Source of the DNA: a virus
Direction: 5' to 3' (one strand)
Length of the DNA stretch: 64,000 nucleotides
IMG/VR virus record: IMGVR_UViG_2884683641_000001
Location: 62-64,061 of that record
Part shown: piece after piece, positions 351 through 13,161 of the stretch
Layout of the letters: each line of letters starts with the position of its first letter
Position numbering within the stretch: the first letter of the stretch is position 1
The notes under the pieces: generated by a model
The model's database searches: none
Told to the model about the DNA's origin: nothing
What the model saw: only the letters and a program-made list of their open reading frames with translations
Program-made: the position numbers and the translations under genes

Positions 351-1591
351 GCAGCACCGCCTTTCTCGCCATGCTGCGCGGCCATGGCAGCGATAGCTTC
401 ATACATCGGGCGCAGTAGGCGGTGCGCTACATTGCCGGCATCCGTCATCACCTTGAACTCGGCGCTCACGTCTGGGCCGGGGAAGTCATGGTCCTTTGCT
501 GCGGCGAGCTTTCCGTTGTACTTGCCAACGGCTTCGATGCGCGCCTTCTCGGCGGCGTGCCAAGCGATCACTGCGGCGGGTGTCGCAGCATCGTGCTCGC
601 TGTCCGGCTGGCTGGCGCCGCGCTGGGCGAGGGCTGCATAGTCGCTGTATTTTACGAATTCGCCTTCCTTGTGGAAGTAAGCGCCTTCCGAGTGCTCATG
701 CAAACGATAACGATCCACATCGCCCGCTTCCTGGTTCAGCGCCTCACCCTGCACGTCGCCGGCAGTTGCGGCCAGAGCTTGCCGTGCACGAGCAAAACGG
801 GCCGTCAGATCGGATTGCGATTGGAAGTCGCCAGCACCGTTAAGCGCGAACTTTTCAGCTACCATCACATCAATCAATGCCGAGCGCACTAAACCGCCAT
901 TCTGTTGCGCGGGCCAAGGAACCGCCTCACCCTGCGCGTTGGAGGGCTGGGCGGCTTCAAGCAGGTATTCCAGCTCTTCAACGCGACGCTGTGCGGCGCT
1001 GGGGCCTGCGCAGACTTCGGCATACTGCTCATCGGTGATGGCTTCCGCCGCCGCGAGCAAGTCTTCCCACTCCCACTCATCGGCCAACACTTCCAGCATG
1101 CCGCGGGTGAGGTGCAGCGGGACCAAAGCCATCTTGTGCTGAGCCGCAGCCGTGTGCAGTTGCTCCAGTTCTACCGGCTTCGCATCCACTGGCGCTGTAT
1201 CTGCTGGGGGATGTGCGGCCAAAAGCTTCTCTAATGCGGCCTTCGCGATCCATCCGTCCTCGACAGTTGCGGTGTTGCTTCTGTCCTCAAGAAAGTTGGA
1301 AGGCTCGCCACTCACCGTATCCCACGCATCAGGGGCGTGTCTGGCGAAATGATTTCCATCGGCATAGAACGTAAGCGCATCGATCACCTCGTCCATTACC
1401 ACACCACCGGCCTGTTGGCCGACTGCTGGCGCGGGCTGGCGGGCGACGAGGATGGCGCGAACCTCATTGCCGAAATAGCCAACCAGTGCAGCACGGAAGT
1501 CGTCCGGCACCTTGGTGCTTTCGATTGCTTTGCGCAGCGCACGCACCAAGTCGATTTCGCTCAGCGCCTGAATGTCTTTGTTCGTTTCCAT
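347..1591 (-). CDS. Mosaic hypothetical early phage protein (414 aa)
   Basis: Long ORF, co-oriented with the early-left operon; no recognisable catalytic motif. Confidence 0.75.
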   Translation of the reverse strand: METNKDIQALSEIDLVRALRKAIESTKVPDDFRAALVGYFGNEVRAILVARQPAPAVGQQAGGVVMDEVIDALTFYADGNHFARHAPDAWDTVSGEPSNFLEDRSNTATVEDGWIAKAALEKLLAAHPPADTAPVDAKPVELEQLHTAAAQHKMALVPLHLTRGMLEVLADEWEWEDLLAAAEAITDEQYAEVCAGPSAAQRRVEELEYLLEAAQPSNAQGEAVPWPAQQNGGLVRSALIDVMVAEKFALNGAGDFQSQSDLTARFARARQALAATAGDVQGEALNQEAGDVDRYRLHEHSEGAYFHKEGEFVKYSDYAALAQRGASQPDSEHDAATPAAVIAWHAAEKARIEAVGKYNGKLAAAKDHDFPGPDVSAEFKVMTDAGNVAHRLLRPMYEAIAAMAAQHGEKGGAA

Positions 1592-1693
1592 GGTAGTGTC
1601 CTTATTGTTTGAGGGCGTGGCGCATCATGGCCGCAGCTTGGGAAAGCATGTTTTGTTGCCGTATCACGCGGCGCAGTTCACCGTAGAATTCGC

Positions 1694-2752
1694 TCATGCG
1701 CCCTCCGTTTTGTTGAGTGCGCGAATTACCGCTTCGCAGTCGAGCCCGGCTTGCAAGCGGTCAGGATCAAGCTGCTCGAGCGCGAACTGGTGTGCCGCAT
1801 TCCCTGTCCGTTCCAGCGCAGCAGCGCGGCACTGGTGGCCGTAGATGCGGATTGCTTTGGCTTCAGGCTCCGTCCAAGTAAGACCGAATCCATCGCAACT
1901 CGTGGGCAGCGGCGGCAGTTCCCCTGCTACGGGCTGGGCCAGTACTGCCATGTCGCCGCTGCAATCAGGGCAATCCTTCACGCACTTTACGGGACCATGC
2001 ATGAACGGCTCACCATTTGGGTAGCAGTCAATTTCGCCATCATCCACGACACCAGTGCCGCCGCAGTTTTTGCACTTTGGCACCGCGTGCGCATGCTCCA
2101 CCAGCTTCTCCTGCGCGGCCTGGGAATTGTGCTCGCCGATTGGGTCGGAGGCTTGCGCATGCTGCTGTGAGGCGGTGAGAACGCGAACTGCACGGAACAG
2201 GTCTGCAAGAAGCACCGCACTGACCTCAGCGTCCTCATCATCCTCCGCCATCTCGACCAGCGCGAACATCGGATCAGTGAGGCATGCCTCCTCGTGTTCT
2301 GCCAGCAGCGCTTGAGCAGCTACCACGAGATCTGTGCTCGCTGCCACTGGCGCTGATGCATGCGCGGCCGGCAGCGGCGAATGCTTCGGCTTCGCGGCCT
2401 GCTTGGCGCGGATCGCCTCGACCTTCGTCCAGATGCGCACCAGTTCGGTCTCGCCGCACTGGTGCATGTCCAGATCGTTCGCCAGGCACAGCGCTGCCAG
2501 CGTGACCATGACGCCGCCGACTTCCTGAGCTGGCTCGCCGACCGGCCGGCCGTAGACGTAGTCCACCAATTGGCGCGCCTCGCTGGCCGTGCAGCCGGTG
2601 GCCTGCACTAGCTCCAGCGCCTCCTCCAGGAAGCGGTGGTTGCGCTCTTCGCGGTCGCTGGCGATCAGCTCGCCGAAACAGGCCAGCATCCAAGGTTGCA
2701 CGCGCTGCTGGAAAGTTGCGCCGGCGTCGCCGTTCTCAATTTTGCTTATCAT
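1694..2752 (-). CDS. MazG-like/NTP-pyrophosphohydrolase-like N-terminal domain plus CxxC...CxxC zinc finger
   Basis: ERNHRFLEEALELVQ...QEVGGVMVTL acidic helical motif; CKNCGGTG...CPDCSG. Confidence 0.55.
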   Translation of the reverse strand: MISKIENGDAGATFQQRVQPWMLACFGELIASDREERNHRFLEEALELVQATGCTASEARQLVDYVYGRPVGEPAQEVGGVMVTLAALCLANDLDMHQCGETELVRIWTKVEAIRAKQAAKPKHSPLPAAHASAPVAASTDLVVAAQALLAEHEEACLTDPMFALVEMAEDDEDAEVSAVLLADLFRAVRVLTASQQHAQASDPIGEHNSQAAQEKLVEHAHAVPKCKNCGGTGVVDDGEIDCYPNGEPFMHGPVKCVKDCPDCSGDMAVLAQPVAGELPPLPTSCDGFGLTWTEPEAKAIRIYGHQCRAAALERTGNAAHQFALEQLDPDRLQAGLDCEAVIRALNKTEGA

Positions 2753-2991
2753 TGCGGTTCCTCAGTAATCGTTAATTCACTCGGACGCACCGGCTCGACG
2801 ATGCCTTCCAGGTAGACCGTTCCTTCGGCATCGCCCTTGTGCCAGTGCAGGCCGGCGATGAACTGCTTGATACCCTTGTACAGCACCGGACGGCACAGCT
2901 GCTTGGCGCGCAGGAGACGCATGTCGTGCTTTTCGGCGAGGTCGCGGGCGGTTTCAACCGGCGCCGCTGGCAGTTTGTCGCGGGCGCTCAT
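2749..2991 (-). CDS. Hypothetical protein (80 aa; start re-called at MSARDK)
   Basis: ATGA overlap with the upstream small ORF. Confidence 0.65.
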   Translation of the reverse strand: MSARDKLPAAPVETARDLAEKHDMRLLRAKQLCRPVLYKGIKQFIAGLHWHKGDAEGTVYLEGIVEPVRPSELTITEEPQ

Positions 2992-3104
2992 GCCAGCCAG
3001 TCCCAAAGTAGGGCGGCGATCAGCAGGCCGTAGATCACCAGGATCTCGCGCCAGACGGTGGCGCGGGCATTGTGGTCGCGCGCAGGTTTGTTATTGCTGC
3101 TCAT
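2988..3104 (-). CDS. Small single-TM protein (38 aa)
   Basis: Manual translation MSSNNKPARDHNARATVWREILVIYGLLIAALLWDWLA; ATGA-coupled on both sides. Confidence 0.55.
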   Translation of the reverse strand: MSSNNKPARDHNARATVWREILVIYGLLIAALLWDWLA

Positions 3105-3430
3105 GATCTGCCTTTCTTCTTTTTGAGGTAAGGGCGGTCGCTGCCGTAGGCGGGCGCACTGCGCTTCGGTTCCTGACTAGACGCGCGTACCATCCGTTCA
3201 AGATCCATCTCGACGCGGCTCGGCGCTCCGGCAATGACATAGACTTCGCTGCCAACCTGCACTTGCTGACCAGCGACGCAGCCGTGGCCGCGACTGGTCA
3301 AGATGCGCGAGCGGACGGCTTCCTTGTCGGCCTCCTGCGCGGACTCTAGGAGCACCTTCACATGCGGAAGGTGCGCGATTGCCGCCAGAGCTGCAGCGCA
3401 GCCGCTGCCGATGTTGGCGATCCTGGTCAA
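3101..3430 (-). CDS. Hypothetical protein
   Basis: Coupled ORF in the early-left operon. Confidence 0.6.
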   Translation of the reverse strand: MTRIANIGSGCAAALAAIAHLPHVKVLLESAQEADKEAVRSRILTSRGHGCVAGQQVQVGSEVYVIAGAPSRVEMDLERMVRASSQEPKRSAPAYGSDRPYLKKKKGRS

Positions 3431-4161
3431 GGCGCCACCCGCTTAAACTCGACCACCCAGACCCATGGGTTTGTCAGCCAGTTCGGCTCCCCATTGATCG
3501 ACTCCCATAACGAGCGGAACGAGTTTTGAGGCATGCATACCCGAGGAGTCCAGCCGTTCTCGGGGCGGTAATTGCGCCAGAGCTTGGTGTCGGGCACCTC
3601 GCACGGCATTTGCTCGATGCCCTCGGCGATTGCATCCGCCTCGCTGAGATCGTTCAGCCGCTCCACGCGCACGCTGACGATCTCCAGCAGGATCCGGCTG
3701 GCCGCGCGCGGCATGAAGATGGCGGGCCGCTTGTACCATCCTGGCAGCGCGCCTCCGCGTCCCGTTGCAAGCGACACGTCAGGGCTGTCGGCGTCGTACT
3801 GGTAGGCGCGGCCGCACTCGGTCGTCATGTCGATGAAGTGCCACTCGTCGCGCTGTTTCTTCTCGGTGTAGCGAGTCTCCCAGCGGCCGTAGGCGAAAAA
3901 GGTCTCGCGCACCCAGATGCAGTGGGCAGGGCCGCCGTGCGGGAATTTTCGGCCGGCAGTTTCGTCCGATGCGCCGAAGATTTCAGGGCCGGGCGCGTCG
4001 TACCCGCTGTTGTCGATTACAGCCGGGTTGCACAAGCCCACGACTGGATTCCAGTACGGGCCTGGATCGGGCTTCACGATGCGCCGCGTCTGCGACTTGG
4101 TGCCGCCGAGCAGTGCGCGGATCATGGGTGCGCTGAAGAGAATCGGATGGTCCCTACTCAT
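3427..4161 (-). CDS. ASCH/PUA-like phage protein
   Basis: N-terminal PILFSAPMIRALLGGTKSQTRR, IWVRETF, KRPAIFMPRAASRILLEI and C-terminal NPWVWVVEF motifs. Confidence 0.7.
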   Translation of the reverse strand: MSRDHPILFSAPMIRALLGGTKSQTRRIVKPDPGPYWNPVVGLCNPAVIDNSGYDAPGPEIFGASDETAGRKFPHGGPAHCIWVRETFFAYGRWETRYTEKKQRDEWHFIDMTTECGRAYQYDADSPDVSLATGRGGALPGWYKRPAIFMPRAASRILLEIVSVRVERLNDLSEADAIAEGIEQMPCEVPDTKLWRNYRPENGWTPRVCMPQNSFRSLWESINGEPNWLTNPWVWVVEFKRVAP

Positions 4162-4194
4162 GCTAATATTCCCTTTTGCTAACTATTAATCGAA

Positions 4195-4959
4195 ATGGCA
4201 ACTGCCCCTCAAACGCCAACTAGCGCTCAGGCGCAGTCATCAACTACGCCCCATTCGGCGTCGCAGCTGATCGATGGCTCAGACTCTCCTGTTGGCAAAT
4301 TGGCGGCTGCATTCGAGCTCGCTCTTCGCCAGCGCGAATTCGAAATCGCGCAATTGACCCAAAGAAATAATTTCTTCATGATCTTCCAGGGTGTACTGAT
4401 GGCAGGTCTGATCCAGTCTGGGGGAGCGGCTGCTCCTGTAGTCGCTTTCGCAGTCTGCGCGGCGGGATTTCTAGTATCGATCCTCCAGATAGGTATGGCT
4501 GCGGGCTCGAAATATTGGCAGGTGCGCTGGGAGCGAGCGGCGAAGACTACCGAAATCTGGTTGCTTGAAGCGCTCAAGGATGAGCCTCGAGTCAGCCATT
4601 TTTTCACGGCGGACAAAGATGGGTTAAAGCAGAGTGAGCTGACCCGGCTGAATGTGGTGAACTCGACCTTGGCGCGCCAAGCTGACCCGCTCGAAATCAT
4701 CGCGAAGGCGACGACCAAAGCAAATCGCGAGGAGCTAGCGCTTGGCAAACCTTGGATTTGGCATAGATTTTGGAATAGTGTCATTTTGATGAAGTTCTCA
4801 GTTAGCAGAATTCCTATTTACGTTGGTGCGGTACTCGCAGCGTTTTGGTTTTTCCTCTTGACGTTCACGATTTCCTACGATGGCGGGAACCTGTGGCAAT
4901 GGCTAGCCTCCTTGCCTGGGGTGTCACATTTATCACTGGTCCCATTGAAATCGTCATAA
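4195..4959 (+). CDS. Antisense moron, multi-TM membrane protein (pore-effector-like; defence candidate)
   Basis: Opposite strand to its neighbours, lower GC; LRQREFEIAQLTQRNNFFMIFQGVLMAG then hydrophobic segments and a C-terminal TM. Confidence 0.75.
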   Translation: MATAPQTPTSAQAQSSTTPHSASQLIDGSDSPVGKLAAAFELALRQREFEIAQLTQRNNFFMIFQGVLMAGLIQSGGAAAPVVAFAVCAAGFLVSILQIGMAAGSKYWQVRWERAAKTTEIWLLEALKDEPRVSHFFTADKDGLKQSELTRLNVVNSTLARQADPLEIIAKATTKANREELALGKPWIWHRFWNSVILMKFSVSRIPIYVGAVLAAFWFFLLTFTISYDGGNLWQWLASLPGVSHLSLVPLKSS

Positions 4960-4963
4960 ATCG

Positions 4964-6403
4964 CTACGCGAGAATTTCGCGGCTGCCGTTCGAACCTGCC
5001 GGTCCGACGACCGATCCTTCCATGGCCTCCAGTAGCCGCGCCGCTCGGTTGTACCCGATCAGAAGGTGGCGCTGGATCAGCGATACCGACGCGCGCTGGT
5101 TGGTGCGCACCACGGCCACGGCCTGGTCGTACAGCGGATCGGTGGCGCTGCCGTCGCCGGCCGGCACGTCGGTCGCAGCGCCGACCACGCGCTGCTCGCG
5201 TACCGGCTCGTCACCTTTGGCCGGCCGTGGACTTGGCTCGACCATTTCAATCGCCGCGACCAAGAACATTTGCGCCGTCTGCGCGCCACCGGTGTGTTGC
5301 TTCGCCAGCGTGAGCGCTGTTTGGATCTCGTCGGCCCCGGTCTGCTGCATAGACTCGCGGACGGTGTCGATGTACGGTTTCAACGTTTGCTCGTACAGAG
5401 TGTCTAGCACGGCGCGGTGCATGTCGCGCACGTTGTACATTTCCGAGGTGAGCTTGATGGCGCGTTCGACCTGCTGCTGCCCCGGCTCTGCCTGGTTGCC
5501 AGACGCTTCCATCGTTGCCTCGCCGCCCAGTACCTCGACCAGGTCGCCCAGCATCTTTGCCAGCTCGCCGGTCATCAGCGCGAAGTCGCCGTCGAAGCGC
5601 TCATCGTCGTTGTGGCTGGTGATCTCGCGCTCGGTCAGCACGTCCAGCGGCTTGACCGACTTGACGGCCAGGCTCTCGTCCAGCACGAAGCTGATCTTGC
5701 TGTCCCAAGTCATGGCCAGGCGGGTGCACTGCTTGCCGGTGTCGATGTGCCGGCGCACTTCGGCCGGCTCCAGCGTGTGGCGCTTGTACGCCACCTGCGC
5801 CTTGCTTTCGCCGGTGGCACGCAGCGTCGCGTCCTGATCGACGGTGAAGCCTGCCGGTGCCTCGTCGGTGGCCAGCCATTCGGTCATGACGCCGACTGGC
5901 GAGCGTTGCACGCGCAGGCTTTCCAGCGGCATGCGGTCGACCGCCTTGAGCAGCAGCTTGATCACTTCGTCGGCCTTGGCCGGGCTGGCGGCGTCGATGA
6001 CCAGCCAGCCGTTGACTGGATCGATCCAGGCCCAGGTGTTCGATTCGATACTGAAGGCGCGCGGCAGCAGTTCGTCGGTGACGCGCTCCTTCAGTTCTTT
6101 CATCGCCTTTTTGCCTGGCGCGAAGCCCTGGGCCTCTTCCATTTCGGCGGCGCGCGCCTTCGTCATCTGGTTGATGACGGTCGCCGGCAGCAGCTTCTTC
6201 TCGCCGCGCAGGCGGATCAGCATCTGCCTGTTGACGGTGTGCACCAAGCCGCCGTCCTTGCGAGGCGCGTCCCAGCCCTGGCGTAACAGCTCGCTGCTGC
6301 TGGCCGGTGCGAATGCTTGCTTCGCGAGGGCGGCGGCCAGCGCGTCGGCGGTCAGCGCGTAGTCGCGCGGCAGGCGATAGATTTGAAGATTTTTAAACCA
6401 CAT
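4964..6403 (-). CDS. rdgC: Recombination-associated protein RdgC fused to a C-terminal FtsK-gamma winged helix
   Basis: [12 protein letters not shown]-terminus and [12 protein letters not shown]-terminus [11 protein letters not shown]...[22 protein letters not shown]. Confidence 0.9.
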
Positions 6404-6411
6404 TACTGATC

Positions 6412-6825
6412 CTATTCGGAAAAAACGACGTCGCGAGCGGCGCCGAAGGCATACAAAAACTCGATGAACTGCGCTGCTTCCTTCACGTAGAACTCGGCTG
6501 TTTGAATGCCGAGTTGCACGGTGCGGCGCCCATCAAAGCTGACGGTCACCCGGCCGTCGTGGTGTAGTGGCGTACCGGCCAGGCGCATCTCGTCGGCGAA
6601 CTCATCCACCAGAAGGCGCTTCATGTCGTCGGCATCCCACTTGCGGCCGATGTGTTCGACCTGGGAGGCGATTTCCGCGATCATGGCGTGGTACTTTTCT
6701 TCCTGGGCGCGTTTCTTGCGCGGCTCGGAGAACACCACCATCCAGCCATCTGGCGCCTTTTGCGCGAAGTCGGCTACATTGCGCCGGGCCTGTTCGTGCG
6801 CGAGAAAGAATGTGCGGCGCGTCAT
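6412..6825 (-). CDS. ninB: NinB/Orf family recombination mediator
   Basis: [20 protein letters not shown]...[11 protein letters not shown]...[14 protein letters not shown]. Confidence 0.8.
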
Positions 6826-7469
6826 GGCGGTGTCTCCGCTGGCACCGCCTCGGCCGCCTGCTTGACCTTGTCGTATTGCTCAATGCCCCAAGCCAGCGCG
6901 TAGCAGCACCAGAGGAAGCGGAAGGTGTACTCTTCGCAGTCGACCTCCCAAAAGTCGTTAAACACGGCACGGCCGTCCCATACGAAATCTCGCACCGCGC
7001 GGTAGGCCTCATCGGCGCCGTCGTCGGCATGAGCCAGCACTTCGGATTCCAGTTCTTCGCGCAGTCCGTGCCCGAGCTTGCCGGTCAGGCCGCAGCGCTC
7101 GACATACTGCATCACCTGCTGCTTGAATTTGTCGGACGAGAATTCCCGGTAACCATCGTTTTTACCGATAGCTTCAAGCTTCTCTCCCCAATAGCTGCGG
7201 TTGACGGCCAGCCGCGCGTCTCCTGGGCGCTGGTGCAGGCGATCCGTCCGGAAAAATGCAAACATGTCTTCGGTGCGCTGAAACACGTAGGTGCCCATGT
7301 CGCCGGTGTAGCAGAGGTAGCCCGGCCAGGTGATCAGGTCGAAATACATGTTGCTGCTATTTGGCTGCTTGAACCGCACATGGCGGTTCGCGCCCTCATC
7401 GCGGATCACGATCATCTTGTGATCGTCCACGTCGCGCAGGAAGCGCGCTTCGGTGCATTCGTGGGTCAT
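6822..7469 (-). CDS. Conserved phage hypothetical protein
   Basis: Coupled ORF, aromatic-rich (FDLITWPGYLCYTGDMGTYVF). Confidence 0.75.
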   Translation of the reverse strand: MTHECTEARFLRDVDDHKMIVIRDEGANRHVRFKQPNSSNMYFDLITWPGYLCYTGDMGTYVFQRTEDMFAFFRTDRLHQRPGDARLAVNRSYWGEKLEAIGKNDGYREFSSDKFKQQVMQYVERCGLTGKLGHGLREELESEVLAHADDGADEAYRAVRDFVWDGRAVFNDFWEVDCEEYTFRFLWCCYALAWGIEQYDKVKQAAEAVPAETPP

Positions 7470-8098
7470 GCGCCCTCCAAGTCATCGCACAGGTCGCAGA
7501 ACACACTGCGCTTCCCATCGGCGCGCAGCAGGATCGGCTCGCCATTGTTCTTGAACGTCGACCCGCTGTAGCGCTGGCCGTTCGGCAGCAGCTTCACGTA
7601 GTAGCGCTCGTGGTATGCCAGCGCTTCGGCCTGGACCGCCGCCATTAGCGCCTCGGTGCCGACACGGCGCACCCACACCCACTGCGGCCCGGATTCGCTG
7701 TCGTGTATCGACAGGGTGAACCAGCCTTCGCCGGCCGGCGGTTCGCAGTACCAATCGCGCACGTGGCAGGCGTTCTGCTCGTAATACGCGATGGCAGCCG
7801 GATGGTCATCACGCTCATCCTCGAGCGAGTCGAAGCGATATTCCAAGCCCTGCTCCAGCATCCAGGCGGCGTACGCCCGGTGGTCTTCTTCGAAGTCCGG
7901 CAGGCCCGGGTGCCAATACCAGCCATCATCGTCACGCTGGGCCGGTAATGGTTCGATCAGCGCAACCGGTGCCGGCGCGAGCGGCGCAGGTTCGGCGGGT
8001 GCCTTGCCGCGCGCAATATGCTGCACATGCATCGCGCCGCACGAAAAAATGACGGCGCTGACGCTCATGAGCAGGGCGGCGATTTGCACGTTGCTCAT
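7466..8098 (-). CDS. Hypothetical protein with N-terminal hydrophobic segment (start re-called at MSNVQI)
   Basis: ATGA overlap at 8095-8098; the longer track ORF overlaps another gene. Confidence 0.65.
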   Translation of the reverse strand: MSNVQIAALLMSVSAVIFSCGAMHVQHIARGKAPAEPAPLAPAPVALIEPLPAQRDDDGWYWHPGLPDFEEDHRAYAAWMLEQGLEYRFDSLEDERDDHPAAIAYYEQNACHVRDWYCEPPAGEGWFTLSIHDSESGPQWVWVRRVGTEALMAAVQAEALAYHERYYVKLLPNGQRYSGSTFKNNGEPILLRADGKRSVFCDLCDDLEGA

Positions 8099-8349
8099 GC
8101 CGCCGCCTTGCCGACTACCGGCGTCACGCGCTCCAGCAGATAGCAGCCGCTGACGCCCTTGAGCCAGATCACCGCGCTGTGACCGCTCAGCACCTGAGCT
8201 TCGCTGGTGGTGATCGTCTCGCGCACTTCGCCTCCGTCCAGCAGCACCGTGACGGTGGTGCCGACCTGATTCGCGGCATTGAACTTGTCGCAGGCGGCCT
8301 GCAGCTGCGCGCCAGCCTGCGCAAGGCGGCGGGATACGCGGCTGCTCAT
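8095..8349 (-). CDS. Hypothetical protein
   Basis: Coupled ORF, 84 aa. Confidence 0.7.
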   Translation of the reverse strand: MSSRVSRRLAQAGAQLQAACDKFNAANQVGTTVTVLLDGGEVRETITTSEAQVLSGHSAVIWLKGVSGCYLLERVTPVVGKAAA

Positions 8350-9110
8350 ACTGCACCGCCCAGGTCGGCCACGCTGATTACGATGCCGCGGCAGTACACC
8401 TCGGCCCCTTCCAACACCTCGAACGTCGCGTGCGGCACGGCCGTGCTGTACGACCAGGTCGCGTTGTCATCGCTGTCGCACCACAGCGCCTCGACCTTCT
8501 TCGCGTCCGGCTCGCGGGCGAAGTAGTCCTTCAGCGCCGCATCGTCGTCCGGGTCGATATCATCGCGCGCCGGCAGTGCCCCCTTGGCGTCGATCAGCAC
8601 CGTGCCGCCGTCGTAGCAGCTCGCCTCGTCATCGATGGCGCCGCTCAGCACCATCAGGTCGTCGCTGGCACCGAAAATTACCACCAGGCCGGCGGCCTTG
8701 GCCTGCAGTTCTTCTTCGCGGGTGATTTCGCTGCCGGTCTGACGGCCGTTCAGCGCCAGGGCCAGCAGTTCCTTCGTCAGCACCGGCGCGGCGGCCTCTG
8801 CCAGCGTGGCAGGCTTCGCCACCGGCTGCGGCGCGGTGTGGTTGAACGCCGCCTGGTCGACCTTTGTGTAAGGGAACTGGTCCGCGCATTTCTTGATGCG
8901 CTGAATGAAGAACGAGCCCTGCGATTGGGCGCCAAGGAACTCGGCGAACATGTCGGCGCTGACGCCCTGGTAGTGGTAGATATCCGACTCACCCGTCGAT
9001 TTCTTCGGGTGGAACTGGATGGCCAGCAGGTTCAGCTCCGGCACATGGCCGATGGCTGCGAACTGGCTGGATTCGACTTTCTGCATGGTGATGGTGGGGA
9101 TGGCGCTCAT
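8346..9110 (-). CDS. KTSC-domain protein fused to an acidic phage domain
   Basis: VESSQFAAIGH...LAIQF...YHYQGVSADMFAEFLGAQSQGSFF is a KTSC pattern. Confidence 0.8.
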   Translation of the reverse strand: MSAIPTITMQKVESSQFAAIGHVPELNLLAIQFHPKKSTGESDIYHYQGVSADMFAEFLGAQSQGSFFIQRIKKCADQFPYTKVDQAAFNHTAPQPVAKPATLAEAAAPVLTKELLALALNGRQTGSEITREEELQAKAAGLVVIFGASDDLMVLSGAIDDEASCYDGGTVLIDAKGALPARDDIDPDDDAALKDYFAREPDAKKVEALWCDSDDNATWSYSTAVPHATFEVLEGAEVYCRGIVISVADLGGAV

Positions 9111-12170: not shown

Positions 12171-12378
12171 GGCGATCCTTTCGGCGGGCGCGCCGCTGCA
12201 TGATGCGATCGCGCTTCCACTGGATCAGGATGCGCAATTCTTGCTGGCGCGCGTCCGGGCTGTAGCCCAAGCCTTCCAGGGCGATTTCGACAACGCGCAG
12301 TTCGCGGCCATTCAACTTGGCGCCGGCACAGCGCGCCACGGTGATGATGTGTTCCAGCGCGGCGATGGCGGCGCTCAT
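12157..12378 (-). CDS. Hypothetical protein
   Basis: Coupled ORF, 73 aa. Confidence 0.65.
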   Translation of the reverse strand: MSAAIAALEHIITVARCAGAKLNGRELRVVEIALEGLGYSPDARQQELRILIQWKRDRIMQRRARRKDRREAA

Positions 12379-12731
12379 TGACGCACCCGGATCGAGAAGC
12401 CCATGGCGCCGGCGTCGCGGGCAGCATCTTCCAGCGCACGCGGATCGCCGATGGCGGTGTAGGTGCGCGCGCGGTCGTGAGCGTCCCGCACGGTGATCAC
12501 GTAGCTCAGGCCGAACTCGCGCGCAGCCAGCTGCGGCGCCACGCTATTGCGGCCGCCGCCGGCGATCTGGTAGCGGCTGACGTGGCTGCCGGCCGGCGCC
12601 GCTTTCGGCGCATCCAGGTTGCCGCTAGTCAGCGCGCTTTCAAAGCCCGAGTCCTGGTAGGCGAAGGCGAGCAGGGCAGATACTGCGAGGCGCGAGGCTT
12701 TGCCTGCGGTGATGTGCGTGACGGTGCTCAT
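12375..12731 (-). CDS. Hypothetical protein (start re-called at MSTVTH)
   Basis: ATGA overlap at 12728-12731. Confidence 0.65.
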   Translation of the reverse strand: MSTVTHITAGKASRLAVSALLAFAYQDSGFESALTSGNLDAPKAAPAGSHVSRYQIAGGGRNSVAPQLAAREFGLSYVITVRDAHDRARTYTAIGDPRALEDAARDAGAMGFSIRVRQ

Positions 12732-12916
12732 ACAGCACCTGCCGATGTGCCATTCAACTCGGACCTGCGGCGTTTGAATTCCTCCGCATAGCCTTCCTCG
12801 AAAGCTTGGTGCAGCACGGCGTGCCTTTTGAGATCGTACGGGTTTCGAAACGACATCAGCCGGCACGCGACCTTCCCGGTGTTCTTCGCTGCTTGCATCT
12901 CCTGCTGCTTTAACAT
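12728..12916 (-). CDS. Small protein, weak Rmf/CrpP-like pattern
   Basis: GGGAGA SD; RNPY...AFEEGY motif. Confidence 0.5.
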   Translation of the reverse strand: MLKQQEMQAAKNTGKVACRLMSFRNPYDLKRHAVLHQAFEEGYAEEFKRRRSELNGTSAGAV

Positions 12917-12946
12917 CGCGTTCTCCCTGTTGACTTCGTTGTTCGT

Positions 12947-13030
12947 TGGTGCCCCGCTGGGAGTCGAACCCGGCCGCTAAGCCATCCTCCGAGTTAGTTT
13001 CCTCGGCGCTCTCCACTGAGCTAACGGGGT
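12947..13030 (-). pseudogene. Degenerate tRNA-like element A
   Basis: TAGCTCAGTGGAGAGC D arm, CCGAG/CTCGG arm with 8-nt loop GAAACTAA, GGTTCGACTCC T loop, CGGGGC-A-CCA end; mismatches in acceptor and T stems. Confidence 0.7.
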
Positions 13031-13161
13031 ACTGCGAGGCTTTGACCAAGTCCTCCTTGGGCCTGTGCGCACTCAGGCTGGCGTTTGGCGGCAACGGCCT
13101 GTCATGTCCGCTGCATTTATGCGACTTCTCAGATCGGCAAATGCCTAAGCTCCATCGCTCA

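Follow-up and report, generated by a model that had tools for sequence, protein, structure and literature searches.

An inverted 8xMP/RipA-family membrane protein gene next to rdgC in a prophage early region and its possible role in guarding the lysogen

What might a single membrane protein gene contribute to a prophage when it is read against all of the early genes that surround it? This question is raised by a gene at positions 4195-4959 of a window of 64,000 nucleotides, which is the whole stretch of DNA that we analysed (positions 62 to 64,061 of the IMG/VR virus record IMGVR_UViG_2884683641_000001; coordinates given below without a locus name are those of the window). The gene is surrounded by the leftward early genes of a prophage of the lambdoid type. 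A preliminary description of this DNA had suggested that the gene is a stand-alone moron, which might serve as sensor and pore in superinfection defence and whose product might be akin to SLATT/Pycsar-type effectors or to proteins of the RipA type. Our analysis identified the product as a member of the Pfam family 8xMP, which also goes by the name of RipA family, and we are nearly certain that an 8xMP/RipA-family moron is present at this site. The explanation that we consider to be the best overall is that this prophage moron encodes a three-pass 8xMP protein which guards the lysogen, and we assign a probability of about 0.42 to it.

Family membership and predicted architecture

The protein of 254 amino acids matches the Pfam family PF24838 ("8xMP, octameric membrane protein family") with an E value of 1.4e-19 and 70.7 bits at a cut-off of 30, residues 39-226 being aligned to positions 3-135/136 of the model, and a scan of the whole genome with the same model yielded 67.6 bits and a single copy. 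All of the 30 aligned homologues match PF24838 as well, and the product name under which homologues are listed at NCBI and UniRef is "RipA family octameric membrane protein", which bears out the RipA-type kinship that had been proposed earlier. In a set of 5.8 billion proteins the window protein has 256 homologue clusters at 90% identity, 241 representatives were recovered from an exhaustive library at 50% identity, and a language-model atlas also returned 8xMP clusters. Within the family, the window copy belongs to a longer subfamily (220-260 amino acids) from Burkholderiales and Pseudomonas, which has a cytoplasmic insert of about 75 residues and a low-complexity N-terminal tail. As a family, 8xMP was catalogued before, and the architecture of the window copy is not new to it. 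Comparison with the 81%-identical copy of locus L113 gave a ratio of nonsynonymous to synonymous substitutions (dN/dS) of 0.11 and, based on this value, the Pfam match and the 256 homologue clusters, 4195-4959 is, as judged by its sequence, a real gene under purifying selection. An open reading frame of 185 amino acids on the opposite strand (4227-4784, minus) was considered and discarded as an artefact, as its sole relatives are antisense frames of other 8xMP genes.

The protein has three hydrophobic segments, all of which are devoid of charged residues and which correspond to transmembrane (TM) segments at about residues 61-78 (TM1), 82-104 (TM2) and 206-226 (TM3). Structural modeling by AlphaFold2 (AF2) resulted in a model with a mean predicted local distance difference test (pLDDT) score of 80, in which helices occupy residues 32-75, 81-126 and 206-225. 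Because 17 lysine and arginine residues are located within residues 105-205, the positive-inside rule assigns a cytoplasmic location to the N-terminus and to the insert, and the protein is predicted to be a three-pass inner-membrane protein with its N-terminus inside and its C-terminus outside. Hydropathy, the AF2 model and the alignment agree with the earlier view that a helical N-terminus bearing the motif REFEI...RNNFF precedes paired TM segments and that a further TM segment follows towards the C-terminus. The motif (R47-F61) resides on the long helix that enters TM1, and its residues R47, E50 and RNNFF are invariant among the 30 homologues.

Invariant in the same alignment are also I51 and L54, the continuation of the run R57 N58 N59 F60 F61 by M62 I63 F64 Q65 G66 V67, and, further towards the C-terminus, M101, A102, G104, K106, W108, Q109, W112, E113, E120, S202, S204, P207 and W218. 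Four conserved polar residues of the hairpin formed by TM1 and TM2 (Q65, Q74, S75 and Q98) lie in or near the membrane. In 59 distant and mostly shorter members, at least 90% conservation was observed for an R, an E, an R and an N before TM1, for a K, two W and an E after TM2, and for two S before TM3. The window protein shares with the family a core that is composed of a cytoplasmic helix, a TM hairpin with the motif R-x-x-E...R-N-N-F-F, the motif K-x-W-Q-x-x-W-E behind TM2, and S-x-S-R-x-P ahead of the third TM segment. Based on the conserved positions in both alignments, most of the conserved core maps to the cytoplasmic side of the hairpin. The insert at residues 127-200 is skipped by the 136-position Pfam model, although the match as such extends over residues 39-226, and it may be regarded as a candidate regulatory or sensing part.

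Comparisons at the level of structure did not reveal a characterised relative. No solved structure in the PDB was related by sequence or profile, and Foldseek against the PDB returned nothing at E <= 0.001. A wide search by VIA-align retrieved generic helical bundles only, the best Z score being 11.7, which is below the value of about 13 that is expected for helical models, and fold searches of the ESM atlas and BFVD were without meaningful matches.

The slot after rdgC and other settings of the family

Around the 8xMP gene, the region is tiled by minus-strand genes (347-1591, 1694-2752, 3427-4161, 4964-6403, 6412-6825, 6822-7469, and on to 12375-13094), with short overlaps between them in the style of a phage operon. 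Among the credible genes from 347 to about 13100, the 8xMP gene is the sole one on the plus strand within some 13 kb of leftward prophage early genes. It fits tightly between its neighbours: its start codon and that of the divergent left neighbour are 33 bp apart, and its stop codon and that of the convergent rdgC are separated by 4 bp. The GC content, determined in 400-bp windows, is 0.51-0.56 across the gene as opposed to 0.60-0.67 in the flanks, and the gene is both inverted and lower in GC, as had been noted previously. For the gene as a whole, the GC content is 0.531 and that of third codon positions (GC3) is 0.584, whereas five further genes from the operon have a GC3 of 0.72-0.85.

To place the site in context, we surveyed 79 IMG/VR prophage loci (L027-L105) that encode relatives of the window RdgC with 51-88% identity, at about 5900-9000 in locus coordinates, downstream of the RdgC match. 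An 8xMP gene was present at a single one of them (L031), where it directly follows rdgC, is likewise inverted and encodes a protein that is 58% identical to that of the window; this homologue had no PADLOC match. At the other loci, the slot after rdgC is occupied by many unrelated genes, several of which are inverted and encode one to four hydrophobic segments, and these occupants gave no convincing Pfam match (three weak ones were below the cut-off) and no PADLOC hit. One occupant, f4, is recurrent; it was found at seven loci (for example L029:6499-7152) as an inverted gene for a protein of 173-231 amino acids with one or two hydrophobic segments. The family is also patchily distributed: of 151 genomes from the same taxonomic family, 5 have a PF24838 match above the cut-off, and the four other genomes of the genus have none. 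As far as composition and distribution can tell, its low GC3 (0.58 versus 0.72-0.85), its presence at 1 of 79 slots and this patchy distribution mark the window gene as a moron, a cargo gene acquired by horizontal transfer, which sits behind rdgC in a slot that is hypervariable.

The tight inverted arrangement is kept in the closest relatives, L113 (81% identical) and L114-L117 (74%), with 33-35 bp upstream and 3-7 bp downstream of the gene. The AT-rich spacer upstream of the gene is retained in L113, L114 and L031, and this is so even if a different gene lies next to it. Since the spacer is kept while the upstream neighbour in L114 (269 amino acids) is unrelated to the left neighbour in the window, gene and spacer seem to be transferred together. 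A conserved partner was sought by an all-against-all comparison of the neighbours at 20 loci of different lineages, and no cyclase, SMODS, TIR, SLOG or other conserved partner was found beside the gene. The sole recurring neighbourhood was local synteny within Acinetobacter, and L113-L117 keep the same solitary arrangement as the window. As no neighbour family is conserved across lineages, the 8xMP gene is to be considered a stand-alone gene, and the earlier designation as a stand-alone moron is thus upheld.

A deviating composition is not restricted to the window copy. In all of the 30 IMG/VR contigs with the family, the GC content of the 8xMP gene is 6-16 points below that of the flanks, and in 7 of 28 contigs the gene is inverted relative to both neighbours. 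Members of the family were identified on various mobile elements: in a Cupriavidus necator prophage (L008) the gene is inverted and lies one gene away from a gene for an RdgC-FtsK-gamma protein, in an F-type conjugative element (L003) it is inverted between transfer genes, and in an integrase island of Ralstonia syzygii (L006/L007) it is located directly beside Lamassu genes. A search of plasmids yielded one weak match, on an Acinetobacter plasmid. At another locus (L001:6748-7851), a gene for the lipid A 3-O-deacylase LpxR directly precedes that of an 8xMP homologue with 60% identity, beside an insertion sequence element; this is a single case.

A different arrangement was found in a further group of prophages (L138-L147). 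Here, the 8xMP gene is positioned behind that of a 186/P2-type CI repressor, with an overlap of about 12 nt, and at most of these loci it is followed by a gene for a 357-residue protein of unknown function. At L140 (5441-9136), the row consists of CI, 8xMP, the 357-residue protein, which has no Pfam family, an ASCH gene (E value 3.6e-07) and an integrase gene, and this row is a P2/186-type lysogeny operon. The CI-8xMP variant of the operon is absent from 5,426 complete Escherichia coli genomes, in which the CI part alone finds matches.

Known defence genes are found close to some copies. PADLOC, applied to 129 neighbours of the 20 loci, identified Hachiman HamA/HamB, Lamassu LmuA/LmuB, a type IV restriction enzyme and two candidate-system proteins, and some 8xMP copies have Lamassu or Hachiman genes no more than 5 kb away. 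These counts were obtained without a matched control, and they are suggestive of a defence-gene neighbourhood of 8xMP. In Methylomicrobium sp. wino1 (L025:3483-7027), a Hachiman-type pair, consisting of an open reading frame of 315 amino acids and a DEAD/ResIII helicase as assigned by Pfam, lies about 1 kb upstream of an 8xMP remnant, which is short and probably truncated.

Possible roles of the 8xMP protein

How could such a gene guard the lysogen? Because it opposes the early operon, the gene is expected to have a promoter of its own. The spacer between the two divergent start codons contains a weak -10-like sequence, TATTAA, at 4184-4189, 5 nt ahead of the ATG, and it might possibly serve as a weak promoter or a leaderless start; translation of 8xMP is probably weak or leaderless. 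This weak promoter would drive 8xMP while CI represses the leftward operon of the prophage, and early lytic transcription would pass over the gene in antisense. The protein would assemble as a ring in the inner membrane, with the octameric state taken from the family name only. Contacts within the ring, or its gate, would be provided by the near-invariant TM1-TM2 hairpin and the cytoplasmic face with R47, E50, R57, N59, K106, W108, W112, E113 and E120, while the variable insert and the tails would set what the protein responds to and, by this, its specificity. The lysogen would then be protected from other phages at the membrane, either by opening of a pore which collapses the membrane potential, resulting in abortive infection, or by a block of genome entry, resulting in superinfection exclusion. 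An anti-phage or exclusion role of the protein is a tentative proposal, to which we give somewhat less than even odds. In its favour are the AT-rich composition of the gene relative to its flanks in all 30 contigs, its place behind CI in one group of prophages, where the gene order would fit with expression in the lysogen, and the defence genes near some copies. We are more hesitant towards the broader notion that 8xMP, or its AT-rich mobile branch, constitutes a widespread system of membrane immunity or exclusion that is based on a single gene and is missing from current catalogues. In such a system, expression would occur from lysogeny, behind CI in P2/186-like phages and from an inverted cassette in lambdoid phages, and the core of the ring would be gated by the variable insert.

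Lambda RexB (with RexA), P22 SieA, T4 Imm and HK97 gp15 are inner-membrane exclusion or abortive proteins from repressed prophages, and they are often encoded by morons or within the repressor operon. The 8xMP group of L138-L147 resembles them in its position directly behind CI. However, no relation in sequence or fold between these proteins and 8xMP was found, and while the former are narrow and fast-evolving, the core of 8xMP is conserved across phyla.

Several observations weigh against a role in guarding the lysogen. At three syntenic Acinetobacter loci, the 8xMP gene is located between valS and a 5'-nucleotidase gene; it follows gatB in Comamonas and def in Nitrosomonas, and other members are situated among metabolic genes. 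As several members thus sit between housekeeping genes, the family is not exclusively a defence family. A tblastn search with the window protein was negative for all 50,697 deposited phage genomes; the protein has no PHROG match, and PADLOC (PADLOC-DB 2.0.0) contains no family that matches it at E <= 10. No recognisable sensor domain is present in the protein, and a search for fusions, which provides weak evidence, gave no homologue of 446-2000 amino acids. In the literature that we searched, neither 8xMP, PF24838 nor an octameric form of RipA was mentioned, and no experimentally determined function of the family was found. The expression signals are similarly sparse: the spacer has no Shine-Dalgarno sequence before the 8xMP ATG, there is no consensus sigma-70 promoter upstream of it, and expression in the lysogen is something that we infer. 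Finally, no terminator-like hairpin is present between the stop codons of 8xMP and rdgC. Since no terminator separates the two genes, lytic early transcription would run antisense through the 8xMP gene.

A rival explanation is a function in envelope physiology, in which the protein would tune lipid A, lipopolysaccharide or membrane homeostasis by lysogenic conversion and would affect phages only indirectly. The model for such a function is RipA of Francisella tularensis (FTL_1914 / FTT_0181c), a small inner-membrane protein (PMC4688374) for which an interaction with LpxA and effects on growth at neutral pH and on cell integrity have been reported (PMC4688374, PMC4322802, PMC12444477). The family name is likely derived from it, as it was the only membrane protein called RipA that we found; RipA of Streptococcus pneumoniae was rejected, being a Rosmer toxin that acts on DnaN and whose paper makes no mention of the membrane. 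The window protein is likewise predicted to reside in the inner membrane. Besides the database name and the tie of Francisella RipA to LpxA, the chromosomal, syntenic and housekeeping-type settings of several members argue for this explanation, and so do the close homologue directly after the LpxR gene and the location of the best conserved residues on the cytoplasmic face, as would be expected for binding of a conserved host partner. However, the Francisella protein is a putative member of PF24838 at best; no Francisella protein was among the listed homologues or the named loci of the family, and the LpxR neighbour occurs once. Francisella RipA is also encoded by a conserved chromosomal gene for intracellular growth and is linked to LpxA (PMC4322802), whereas the window gene is mobile cargo. 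The AT-rich foreign composition, the carriage by mobile elements, the patchy distribution and the neighbours from defence islands fit better with genes involved in conflict. We thus regard an envelope function as unlikely, albeit the strongest of the competing explanations. If the family did modulate lipid A synthesis in the way of Francisella RipA, the prophage copies would represent a new kind of envelope-converting gene.

Less probable still is a role as an addiction or toxin-like membrane protein which stabilises the element, being kept low by weak translation and antisense transcription and penalising loss or misregulation of the prophage. Such a protein would be in line with the missing Shine-Dalgarno sequence and with the convergent arrangement with rdgC, in which, at 4 bp between the stop codons and no terminator, the transcripts must overlap. 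It would also be in line with the fact that members are carried by prophages, islands and a conjugative element, and with a ParE toxin gene that follows one of the homologues. Neither an antitoxin gene nor a conserved partner was found, though, and known type I membrane toxins are far smaller than the 8xMP protein. In addition, the strongly conserved architecture of several helices and the members in housekeeping contexts argue for a regulated function rather than that of a simple poison.

It is highly improbable that the protein is an effector of a signalling system of the SLATT, Pycsar or Thoeris type whose partner is encoded elsewhere. SLATT effectors are small alpha-helical membrane proteins that are thought to oligomerise and to breach the membrane (10.64898/2025.12.03.692087). 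Those of CBASS, Pycsar and Thoeris share with 8xMP a TM hairpin and cytoplasmic helices, and one UniRef record (P0046) names a homologue a SLATT domain protein. However, 8xMP has no signal-producing partner, possesses a third TM segment as well as a conserved helix before the hairpin, and shows no relation to SLATT by hidden Markov model (HMM): none of the 30 family members matches the SLATT models of Pfam and NCBIfam at E <= 1. No PADLOC hit was obtained, a cyclase, TIR or other partner is found neither beside the gene nor in its close relatives, and the terms 3TM, 8xMP and RipA are absent from the preprint 10.64898/2025.12.03.692087. The kinship to SLATT/Pycsar effectors, for which the preliminary description had proposed an HMM search, is therefore not supported; PF24838 was matched above the cut-off, while the SLATT and PADLOC models were not.

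Equally improbable is a function in the phage life cycle, either in the timing of lysis (holin- or antiholin-like) or in membrane anchoring of replication or recombination, since the position of a multi-pass membrane protein gene beside recombination genes is outweighed by its absence from the site in 78 of 79 related prophages, its orientation opposite to the early operon, its distance from any lysis cassette, its foreign codon usage and the occurrence of members on non-phage elements and chromosomes.

Taken as a whole, our finding is incremental, and its value lies in context evidence for a large membrane protein family of unknown function. New are the slot after rdgC into which genes are swapped, the GC deficit found throughout, the placement in the CI operon in another group of prophages and the negative result for SLATT. 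Proof that one member blocks phages would define a widespread class of one-gene membrane immunity or exclusion and would provide a candidate role for the copies in prophages and on other mobile elements.

Neighbouring genes and further observations

The positions of the 8xMP gene, its segments and its neighbours are summarised in Table 1.

Table 1. Features of the 8xMP locus in the window and segments of the encoded protein (aa, amino acids).
Feature	Position	Strand	Remarks
Left neighbour, 244 aa, PHROG 874 of unknown function	3427..4161	-	Divergent; slot boundary, not partner
Divergent AT-rich spacer, 33 bp	4162..4194	.	Separates the two divergent start codons
8xMP/RipA-family membrane protein gene	4195..4959	+	ATG start, 254 aa plus stop; open reading frame, Pfam, homologues, dN/dS, GC3
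aa 1-30, low-complexity A/P/Q/S/T-rich tail, predicted disordered	4195..4284	+	pLDDT <50 for residues 1-25; variable among homologues
aa 32-60, cytoplasmic helix into TM1 with invariant R47, E50, I51, L54, R57-N58-N59-F60	4288..4374	+	AF2 helix 32-75; alignment
aa 61-104, TM1-TM2 hairpin with very short predicted outer loop (AAP, three residues)	4375..4506	+	Hydropathy peak 2.37; AF2 helices 32-75, 81-126
aa 105-126, cytoplasmic TM2 extension with invariant K106, W108, Q109, W112, E113, E120	4507..4572	+	Alignment; AF2
aa 127-200, small helical cytoplasmic insert	4573..4794	+	Subfamily-variable; gaps in shorter members; pLDDT 82-94
aa 206-226, TM3, preceded by invariant S202, S204, P207 (SVSRIP motif)	4810..4872	+	Hydropathy 1.75; AF2 helix 206-225
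aa 227-254, variable tail at the C-terminus, predicted to lie outside the cytoplasm	4873..4956	+	Charge distribution; pLDDT 55-68
Right neighbour, RdgC fused to FtsK-gamma	4964..6403	-	Convergent; slot boundary; Pfam RdgC E 4.8e-112, FtsK_gamma E 3.3e-21
NinB	6412..6825	-	Gene next beyond RdgC-FtsK-gamma

The 8xMP gene had been placed between an ASCH-like gene and rdgC. The identity of rdgC is well supported by Pfam, whereas the label of the left neighbour is not: its protein has no Pfam hit, ASCH included, and PHROG 874 is its sole match. Its family (f1) is present in 17 of the related prophages. An ASCH gene, assigned by a weak precomputed Pfam hit, is located two genes from the 8xMP gene in L114 and L115, and neither the 357-residue protein gene nor the ASCH gene of L140 is related to the left neighbour in the window. 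RdgC of the related prophages either occurs alone (about 297-306 amino acids) or is extended at its C-terminus behind a linker, reaching up to about 540 amino acids, and the length of this extension varies widely.

The extra parts of three longer representatives of the 8xMP family have no relative in the PDB. Two long frames around 8xMP matches were considered as fusions and rejected. The frame of L107 is due to read-through, is rich in GC and has a start as in the short form, and that of L108 contains, in frame and upstream, an integrase-like sequence as recognised by eye. At the latter locus (G103:C193, about 1474-3018), the 8xMP gene lies in frame behind this integrase-like sequence and a stretch that resembles a translated tRNA gene, which suggests that its surroundings are a decayed integrative island at a tRNA site.

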